A stretch of DNA of 64,000 nucleotides, taken from contig JBFWNS010000003.1 of NCBI GenBank assembly GCA_050250935.1, forward strand, positions 186,349 through 250,348, given 5' to 3'. Under the pieces are notes generated by a model, which was not told the origin of the DNA, made no database searches, and was given only the letters and a program-made list of their open reading frames with translations. Shown piece after piece: positions 57,531 to 58,539 of this stretch (position 1 is its first letter; each line of letters begins with the position of its first letter). The position numbers and the translations under genes are program-made. Origin of the DNA: Candidatus Margulisiibacteriota bacterium (GTDB lineage: Bacteria; Margulisbacteria; Marinamargulisbacteria; JBFWNS01).

Positions 57531-58238
57531 GTGGAGCTAGTTGGTATCGCATCGATCGTTTCTGGAACTCTGTGTATGGCGTTGGGCTCAATTGGGTCCG
57601 CTTTGGGTGAAGGCTACATTTGCTCTCGCGCATTGGAAGGTCTAAAGCGTCAGCCTGCTGCTGGTGCGAAAGTCACCCGTACCATGCTGATTGGTCAGGC
57701 CATTACCGAAACCCCTGTCATCTTTGCCATGGTTATCGCCCTGCTTTTGATTTTTAGTTCTCATGATGGCGGCATTGACCGAGCTGTTTCATTGCTCGCT
57801 GCAGGTTTGGCCATGGGCATTGGGGCGATTGGACCGGGTTTGGCTATTGGGCTCCCAGCTTCTATTGCTTGCGAAGGCATTAGCCGTCAACCCGACAACA
57901 CCGATCGACTTTCGATGAACATGTTGGTAGGACAGGCCATTGCAGAAACGGGTAGTATTTTTGCTTTCACGACAGCCTTGATGTGCATCACGATTCCAAC
58001 TTCTGGAAGTTTTTCAGAAATGGTAGCTCGACTTTCAGCAGCTCTTTGCATTGGGTTCGGTATTTTGGGACCTGCCATTGGGGTAGGGACCGTTGCTTTA
58101 AAAGCCAATAAAACGATTGGGAAATATCCGCGTCATGCTGACGCTTTGACCAGGACAATGCTCATTGGTCAAGCCGTCACCGAAACGATGGGGATATATG
58201 CCATGGTCGTTGCGTTGGTTCTGATCTTTAGTGTTTAG
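57531..58238 (+). CDS. atpE: Triplicated ATP synthase subunit c (three hairpins, six TM helices)
   Basis: Three 79-aa repeats with loops RQP/RQP/KYP and GQAITET / GQAIAET / GQAVTET; RBS AAGGAG before GTG. Confidence 0.93.
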   Translation: MELVGIASIVSGTLCMALGSIGSALGEGYICSRALEGLKRQPAAGAKVTRTMLIGQAITETPVIFAMVIALLLIFSSHDGGIDRAVSLLAAGLAMGIGAIGPGLAIGLPASIACEGISRQPDNTDRLSMNMLVGQAIAETGSIFAFTTALMCITIPTSGSFSEMVARLSAALCIGFGILGPAIGVGTVALKANKTIGKYPRHADALTRTMLIGQAVTETMGIYAMVVALVLIFSV

Positions 58239-58281
58239 TCCGCTTTAATTCACAAAAAATTTTTTTAGGAGGAGTTTTTAG

Positions 58282-58539
58282 ATGGCTGAGATTTCAATGA
58301 CTGGTGCTGAGGTTATTAAAGCAGTTGCTGTGTTTTCTGCTGGGATGTGTATGGCTGTTGGTGCAATCGGAACCGGTTTAAGCGAAGGTTACGCCGCTGC
58401 TAAAGCTTGCGAAGCTGTTGGCAACCGTCCAGACGAAGCTGCGTCTATCACCCGTACCATGATTATCGGTCAAGCGGTAACAGAAACAGTTGCAATTTAC
58501 TGTTTGGTTGTTGCCCTTGTTTTGATCTTCGTAGTATAA
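58282..58539 (+). CDS. atpE: ATP synthase subunit c (single hairpin)
   Basis: GAIGTGLSEG, loop NRP, GQAVTETVAIY; very strong RBS AGGAGGAG. Confidence 0.96.
   Translation: MAEISMTGAEVIKAVAVFSAGMCMAVGAIGTGLSEGYAAAKACEAVGNRPDEAASITRTMIIGQAVTETVAIYCLVVALVLIFVV

Follow-up and report, generated by a model that had tools for sequence, protein, structure and literature searches.

A hybrid F-type rotor with a three-hairpin c subunit, probably converted from Na+ to H+ with a regained carboxylate

The stretch of DNA analyzed here (the window, 64,000 nucleotides of contig JBFWNS010000003.1 from an uncultured, aerobic Candidatus Margulisiibacteriota bacterium, assembly GCA_050250935.1) encodes an F-type ATP synthase in which a c subunit of three fused hairpins, c3, is accompanied by a c subunit of one hairpin. 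Hybrid rotors of this kind form a wide family, to which the window probably adds a case of conversion from Na+ to H+ with a regained ion site. On sequence comparisons we give such a conversion, including the restoration of a dead site, a slightly better than even chance. The Glu found in the middle unit of c3, and missing from its close relatives, would then be there probably because the motor moved from Na+ to H+.

The atp operon

The window contains a complete F-type operon, atpZ-I-B-E1-E2-F-H-A-G-D-C, at positions 56030-63928 (Table 1). The canonical NCBIfam cut-offs were exceeded by alpha, beta, gamma, epsilon and b, and the alternate (N-type) models remained below theirs (TIGR03324, 651 against 750; TIGR03305, 591 against 752; TIGR03323, 92 against 282). 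An N-ATPase was rejected on these alternate-model scores and on the presence of delta. An archaeal or V-type origin was also rejected: alpha, beta and gamma of the F-type scored above cut-off, and neither this genome nor any of 40 relatives yielded a match above cut-off to the V/A-type subunit I (PF01496). The operon encodes the only rotary ATP synthase of the genome, an F1Fo. AtpI is given a role in assembly in a figure legend of PMC7911925.

Table 1. Features of the atp operon, in window coordinates
Feature	Coordinates	Strand	Remarks
atpZ-like / ATPase gene 1	56030..56275	+	81 aa; PF09527 above cut-off
atpI, c-ring assembly factor	56256..56648	+	130 aa; PF03899 barely above cut-off
atpB, subunit a	56649..57518	+	289 aa; PF00119; R225 kept
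atpE1, three-hairpin c subunit (c3)	57531..58238	+	235 aa, GTG start; carboxylates E/E/E
c3 hairpin 1	57531..57761	+	helix 1 E27; E60-T-P-V-I-F, E codon 57708
c3 hairpin 2	57768..57998	+	helix 1 I106; E139-T-G-S-I-F, GAA at 57945; Gln in class orthologues
c3 hairpin 3	58005..58238	+	helix 1 V185; E218-T-M-G-I-Y, E codon 58182
atpE2, single-hairpin c	58282..58539	+	85 aa, ATG start; E35, E68-T-V-A-I-Y
Stem-loop between atpE2 and atpF	58565..58597	+	15 bp, T-rich tail; z -5.1
atpF, subunit b	58616..59140	+	PF00430 and TIGR01144 above cut-off
atpH, delta	59137..59694	+	PF00213
atpA, F1 alpha	59707..61212	+	TIGR00962, 814 bits (cut-off 484)
atpG, gamma	61222..62076	+	TIGR01146 above cut-off
atpD, F1 beta	62089..63507	+	TIGR01039, 804 bits (cut-off 463)
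atpC, epsilon	63500..63928	+	TIGR01216 above cut-off

A promoter scan returned 8 against 10.2 in shuffles and hence no excess. The strong stem-loop downstream of atpE2 possibly stabilises or attenuates the mRNA in favour of the c genes; no structure of matching strength was present in 19 relatives (z -2.4 to 2.1). Upstream, the start of atpZ is overlapped by one base by a gene for a SAM-dependent methyltransferase (55311-56030, + strand), which we take to be CmoA-like.

The two c genes

Both c genes described in an earlier note, made from the letters alone, were recovered at the same positions and with the same lengths. Its exact period of 79 residues was also borne out: E60, E139 and E218 are spaced by 79, and GQAxxET occurs three times. 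In comparisons of c3 with itself, identity peaked at lags of 79 (0.37) and 158 (0.42), the maximum in 500 shuffles being 0.22. Between repeats the identity is 36-42% at the protein level and 45-53% at the DNA level, far from the near-identity that the note had named as the mark of an artefact, and this divergence at both levels excludes a collapsed assembly repeat. The note had further expected about six helix matches to Pfam ATP-synt_C; three stretches were obtained, because the model covers a whole hairpin. In the Atlas monomer model of c3 (pTM 0.90, pLDDT 0.91) the fold agreed with that of a four-hairpin c cluster at a TM-score of 0.97.

The single c gene does have the stronger start, as the note had said. 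Its duplex with the E. coli anti-SD sequence amounted to -10.2 kcal/mol against -8.7 for the fused gene, and it begins with ATG rather than GTG. On rough start calls the single c also had the stronger signal in most relatives, which fits a one-to-many ratio of the subunits. By tblastn no c gene besides atpE1 and atpE2 was found in the genome (95.85% complete).

Distribution of fused c genes

The class to which the genome belongs, Ca. Marinamargulisbacteria, was represented by 54 other genomes. Multi-hairpin c genes were present in 27 of these (24 complete genes with three hairpins, two cut by contig ends and one with two hairpins) and in six genomes of other classes of the phylum. The arrangement atpB-c3-c1-atpF, for which the earlier note had proposed a survey, is thus widespread. 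Four- and five-hairpin F-type c proteins, assigned to Desulfobacterota where named, were added by database matches, and fused forms with two to six hairpins occur in Desulfobacterota, Planctomycetota and others. The order atpB, c of two to six hairpins, single c and atpF recurred at loci of named genomes and metagenomes, and in 19 of the 19 class loci examined the single c lay 3' of the fused gene. Orthologues equal in length to c3 carry the label Ca. Marinamargulisbacteria in their source name.

The best PDB match of both c proteins of the window was Acetobacterium woodii c1 (4BEM chain J), which headed the list for c3 with an E value of 8e-21. Taken together with the wide spread, this best solved match indicates that the architecture extends the known hybrid rotor. 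A hybrid ring of fused and single c subunits, as proposed in the note, is still the best reading; the gene descends from the family of the A. woodii c1 type and not from the archaeal triplicated c that the note cites. The searches turned up nothing closely related to the E/E/E gene: identity reached 54% at best, or 52% when the phylum was searched, and named genomes and metagenomes yielded distant matches only.

The literature searched held no characterised three-hairpin c subunit of the F-type, in agreement with the note, nor any account of F-type c subunits with at least three hairpins. The survey of hybrid rotors by Brandt and Muller in Biol Chem (2015) may include long c subunits such as that of Desulfatibacillum, and supplements of preprints might list some. 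Multiple atpE copies are reported in Desulfatiglandales, and fused hairpins are not described in the accessible text of that source (PMC13343851).

Four further loci are worth recording. A six-hairpin F-type c (E/Q/Q/Q/Q/Q) stands ahead of a single c at two loci (L021 and L072). The two-hairpin c of class genome G001 has Gly at the second carboxylate position (GTTVIY). In G022 subunit a (G022:C1:402184-403011) and the c genes (C7) are on separate contigs, so that the operon is split there.

Ancestry of the second hairpin

Gln occupies the carboxylate position of hairpin 2 in all 24 class loci that were parsed (one further locus was unparsed). The same holds for 62 of the 63 database proteins with three hairpins; the window protein is the sole exception. 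Over all rows with at least three hairpins, in which loci and proteins overlap, hairpin 2 carried Gln 245 times, Glu twice (the window protein both times) and Thr once. A tree of 28 three-hairpin proteins, with seven duplicate, ambiguous, cut or unparsed class loci or others left out, placed c3 of the window inside the class clade (100/100); its branch was long, at 2.4 where the median was 0.21, and such a branch is hard to place exactly. In a quick tree of single hairpins each hairpin of the window grouped with the class hairpin of the same position (support 91, 90 and 93), and outgroup proteins carry Gln in hairpin 2 as well.

Since Gln is found in hairpin 2 of both class and outgroup, and the trees place the hairpin of the window among them, E139 is best read as regained, most likely from Gln. 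The statement of the earlier note that c3 keeps all three Glu is correct for the window. It does not describe the family, in which E/E/E is an exception and most likely a reversion from E/Q/E accompanied by loss of Na+ ligands. A special meaning of E/E/E is made less compelling by 13 of 115 distant representatives with at least three hairpins, parsed from sequence without genomic context, which have an acid in every hairpin. Four-hairpin c proteins of about 320 residues form a large group of their own (P0263-P0355), with E/Q/E/D, in some cases E/E/E/E, and hydrophobic sites.

Ion ligands in subunits c and a

In the ring of Fusobacterium nucleatum two adjacent hairpins share each Na+ site. One supplies Glu32 and Glu65, its neighbour Val63 and Ser66, and Tyr70 and Thr67 complete the site (PMC3692424). 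The complete Na+ motif, defined in 10.64898/2026.10.01.756066 as E/Q in helix 1 together with E[ST][ST]xxY, is absent from both c proteins of the window. In all 19 relatives the single c reads E..ETTxxY; that of the window has ETVAIY, and the hairpins of c3 have ETPVIF, ETGSIF and ETMGIY, so the Thr at E+2 is missing from all four hairpin types. The helix-1 ligand position holds Ile in hairpin 2 of c3 and Val in hairpin 3, where 17 of 19 relatives have Asp. Hydrophobic sites are reported to favour H+ (PMC7594442). Against an H+ reading counts the single c, which retains four of the five Na+-site residues (E35, E68, T69 and Y73) with Val70 at the position of Thr67, and loss of the E+2 residue alone possibly leaves a site capable of Na+ binding (10.64898/2026.10.01.756066). 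The same 17 relatives combine the helix-1 Asp of hairpin 3 with an extra Asp at E+3 (ETTDIY), an unusual site with three acids. Class genome G011 has a long-branched c3 whose third hairpin, ETVAIY, resembles the single c of the window.

Subunit a was aligned with 28 class sequences and 19 other hybrid-type a subunits. At class-invariant columns the window departs by N93T, E152K, F231A and G258V; position 93 is Asn in 47 of the 47 other a subunits, and position 152 is Glu in 27 of the 28 class rows. It has also gained E261 (codon 57429-57431), four residues before a conserved Gln, in a column that holds Ala, Ser or Val in all 28 class rows and an acid in none. An E. coli suppressor, aI248E, presumably falls at the matching position; it found no match in the literature searched and is given no weight here. 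The changed positions appear to line the entry half-channel, where E. coli has the buffering acids E219/H245 (PMC5129741). A comparable case is G069, a genome of another class with a two-hairpin hybrid operon, in which Glu at column 261 of subunit a accompanies ESNSIY in the single c. This genome has Rnf- and hydrogenase-like matches and not complex I, and therefore supports a link of the Glu in subunit a with an eroded Na+ site, not a link with complex I.

Respiratory genes

A nuo operon is located on a 188-kb contig, and all 11 subunits scanned matched Nuo models. A heme-copper oxidase lies beside a cluster resembling alternative complex III (ACIII-like), which was read by eye from ORF starts. 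Among the other class genomes complex I (NuoD, E < 1e-100) was detected in none of the 27 with a multi-hairpin c and in 12 of the 27 without; the window genome is thus the only multi-hairpin class genome with complex I, a correlation that concerns one lineage in a set where many genomes are incomplete. When its NuoD was compared with eight from the class, identity was 79-87% for seven of them and 42% for the other. Of 40 relatives, 22 have a multi-hairpin c, and 20 of these gave an NqrB- or RnfD-like match (16 above cut-off, one split over contigs and three weaker). Complex I and NQR are almost mutually exclusive across the class, which suggests that both modules were replaced. Most multi-hairpin class genomes encode a heme-copper oxidase. 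A TopA tree put the window genome beside family f17, which has complex I, with weak support (83).

Eight class genomes with only weak c matches were inspected (G002, G006, G007, G008, G019, G027, G033 and G039; four with complex I). All eight have an unrelated F-type operon with one single c lacking the Na+ motif; in the four with complex I it is an operon of the H+ type. In seven the c subunit is of the EAIALY/EAVMLL type and alpha falls in a separate clade (support 100), the alpha of G002 standing apart; four of these seven have complex I or are near lineages that do. The alpha of the window lies inside the clade of hybrid operons (99).

A contig of 3,868 bases in the same bin (G000:C16) carries nqrA-B-C followed by the beginning of nqrD, and this fragment counts against a clean H+ picture. 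Its NqrB is 49-51% identical to class NqrB, where pairs within the class reach 57-68%, and its nearest Atlas clusters are mostly from Pseudomonadota; no nqrF above cut-off was found in the genome. The tetranucleotide composition of the contig is no outlier (9.5% of chunks are equally far), so contamination was not shown. The contig could have strayed into the bin or been acquired by recent transfer. A Na+/H+ exchanger is also present in the genome. Two homologues of membrane pyrophosphatase (PF03030, 312 and 274 bits) are encoded at 22501-24432 (+) of the window and at G000:C7:8532-10688. The window copy scored far below the NCBIfam cut-offs, and a regex search found catalytic motifs in neither copy; judged by sequence, both may be divergent or non-catalytic.

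Proposed conversion of the rotor

The following course of events could account for these observations. Distribution and trees point to a class ancestor whose ring was powered by Na+ from NQR or Rnf and had Gln in hairpin 2 (E/Q/E), a dead step that lowered the cost of ATP by a third of an ion. The window lineage has an H+-pumping complex I, the ACIII-like cluster and the heme-copper oxidase but kept its old operon, which appears to have been converted by point changes and not replaced. Polar Na+ ligands gave way to hydrophobic residues (at E+2, Val, Pro, Gly or Met in place of Thr; in helix 1, Val in place of Asp), and subunit a shed class-invariant polar residues and gained Glu261. With Glu regained in hairpin 2, every hairpin could carry a proton. 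The likely pressure is that H+ rotors of the F-type are halted by a hairpin that lacks a carboxylate. The price would be one additional ion per turn: for a ring of 11 hairpins, a number assumed from other Na+ F-rings (PMC3692424), 3.67 instead of 3.33 ions per ATP. In the fused c10 ring of Bacillus PS3 a single E56Q hairpin abolished ATP synthesis and H+ pumping (PMC8809890), and the ring of A. woodii contains c1 with its silent hairpin (PMC7911925, 10.64898/2026.10.01.756066).

If this is true, Na+ F-rotors can step over a carboxylate-free hairpin and H+ F-rotors cannot. Counting against such a rule, V-type H+ rotors tolerate acid-free hairpins, and distant four-hairpin proteins with hydrophobic-looking sites keep Gln (30 EQED of 115); a dead site thus need not block the use of H+. 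The fuller version, in which an ion switch in place revived a site lost earlier than the origin of the class, with subunit a rewired as well, while sister lineages replaced the whole operon, is attractive but somewhat short of an even chance. Should the conversion hold, it would provide a short list of c and a residues that accompany a change from Na+ to H+ and would tie the type of ion to the tolerance of dead sites. It bears on two old questions, the purpose of hybrid c-rings and the way a rotor passes a hairpin without a site. The class offers a natural comparison of many E/Q/E rings (full Na+ motif, NQR or Rnf) with one E/E/E ring (eroded ligands, complex I), and it shows hybrid rotors in aerobic bacteria and not just in energy-limited anaerobes.

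The strongest competitor is a hybrid ring that is still coupled to Na+ or uses both ions. In such a ring E139 would be a structural residue that never gives up its proton, or else a weak site, and the dead step would persist. We regard it as unlikely, though it deserves attention. The single c, with its two-carboxylate site, Thr at E+1 and Tyr, resembles that of F. nucleatum save for Thr67 (PMC3692424), and both nqrABC in the bin and the Na+/H+ exchanger would suit a Na+ economy. Opposed to this are the loss of the E+2 Thr in all four hairpin types, the Ile and Val at the helix-1 ligand positions of hairpins 2 and 3, and subunit a, which changed in step. Complex I, moreover, sits on a 188-kb contig and has a class-like NuoD, whereas the nqr genes are atypical of the class.

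Composition of the ring

In 228 distinct multi-hairpin proteins, which are kin so that the counts are not independent, Tyr at E+5 was followed by an acidic hairpin in 79 cases and was never seen ahead of a non-acidic one (0 of 501). The first hairpin was acidic in 228 of 228 and the last kept its Tyr in 227 of 228. An acid in the first hairpin and a Tyr in the last make the ends of the fused proteins look tuned to meet other c subunits, and the covariation would fit a hybrid ring as well as a ring of fused subunits alone. By analogy with A. woodii, the ring of the window very probably consists of c3 as the minority member, probably in one copy, and several single c subunits.

It is improbable that c3 instead serves as an assembly template that is later dropped, or forms a ring of its own (for example four copies with 12 hairpins) under other conditions. 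The Glu of the first hairpin and the Tyr of the last would suit a ring of c3 only, which with E/E/E would be fully functional, and the weaker start signal of c3 is in keeping with either role. However, the homologous c1 of A. woodii is a ring member at 1:9 (chain counts of PDB 4BEM; 10.64898/2026.10.01.756066), and in none of the 19 class loci does the fused gene lack a single c after it.

Variation among strains

In a strain from a second study (X3), two contigs together span c3, with an identity of about 91%. Among the differences listed, all 23 in c3 were synonymous, 22 of them in hairpin 1, and none was non-synonymous; all seven in the single c were synonymous too. A further 40 differences, which include both G>C changes of the run, lie outside this list, so the figures do not cover codon 139. 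They speak against the view, to which we assign little probability, that E139 and the other changes arose by drift when selection on a dispensable c3 was relaxed, and carry no information on the use of ions. The long branch of c3, with seven changes at 69 otherwise invariant columns, would be expected under drift, and a long c3 branch is also seen in G011 (5 of 67), a 66%-complete genome in which neither complex I nor NQR was found. However, the changes strike ion ligands in three proteins at once, namely c3, the single c and subunit a, and the branch of alpha is of normal length (0.2).

One contig of run X1, possibly the source run, spans the stretch without any difference; run X2 gave no coverage, and run X4 covered just 37 intergenic bases. 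An assembly artefact, either duplicated repeats or a miscalled base at codon 139, was rejected as exceedingly improbable: a single base separates the E139 codon from one for Gln, and the codon was confirmed in the possible source run only, but the repeats have diverged in DNA, 24 class genomes with complete genes have orthologues of equal length, and the contigs of the second study cover c3 in their two pieces without gaps.

Comparison with known rotors

The F1Fo of A. woodii, an F/V-hybrid Na+ rotor in which c1 is joined by c2/c3 (PDB 4BEM), resembles the c1/c2 system of Clostridium aceticum (PMC7911925) in that a fused c gene stands immediately ahead of a single c in an F-type operon, and shares with the window the signature of a first hairpin with ETxxIF and a last hairpin ending in Tyr. 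It differs in several respects. Its c1 has two hairpins (four helices) and c3 of the window has three; its second hairpin is silenced by Gln, where the window has E139; its Na+ motif is complete and that of the window is not. The host of the former is an Rnf anaerobe, the host of the latter has complex I and a heme-copper oxidase. The operon of the window thus appears to work like the hybrid rotor of A. woodii, yet it departs from three features that define that type: a fused c of two hairpins, the silencing of the second of them, and completeness of the Na+ motif.

The single c of the window shares with the two-carboxylate Na+ ring (c11) of F. nucleatum (PDB 3ZK1/3ZK2; PMC3692424) Glu at positions 32 and 65, Thr at 66 and Tyr at 70. 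Thr67, which in F. nucleatum holds the Na+-bound water (PMC3692424) and which is kept as Thr in 19 of 19 relatives, is replaced by Val70, and the ring of the window, in contrast to c11, is predicted to be heteromeric. Three tandem hairpins are also found in the triplicated c of the Methanocaldococcus jannaschii A1Ao (PMC2359735), but that subunit is of the A-type and has its own duplication history, whereas c3 stands in an F-type operon with a single c as partner, and V-type K models scored far below cut-off.

N-ATPases (PMC2881411) have c subunits with two carboxylates, as has the window, and c3 passes TIGR03322 by summing its three repeats. The operon nevertheless contains delta, follows the canonical gene order and has alpha, beta and gamma below the alternate-F1F0 cut-offs. 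N-ATPases lack delta, and their gene order starts with atpD-atpC. Covalently linked hairpins in an F-type ring are common to c3 and the fused c10 of Bacillus PS3 (PMC8809890). The latter was engineered from identical repeats and carries the whole ring in one chain; c3 is natural.
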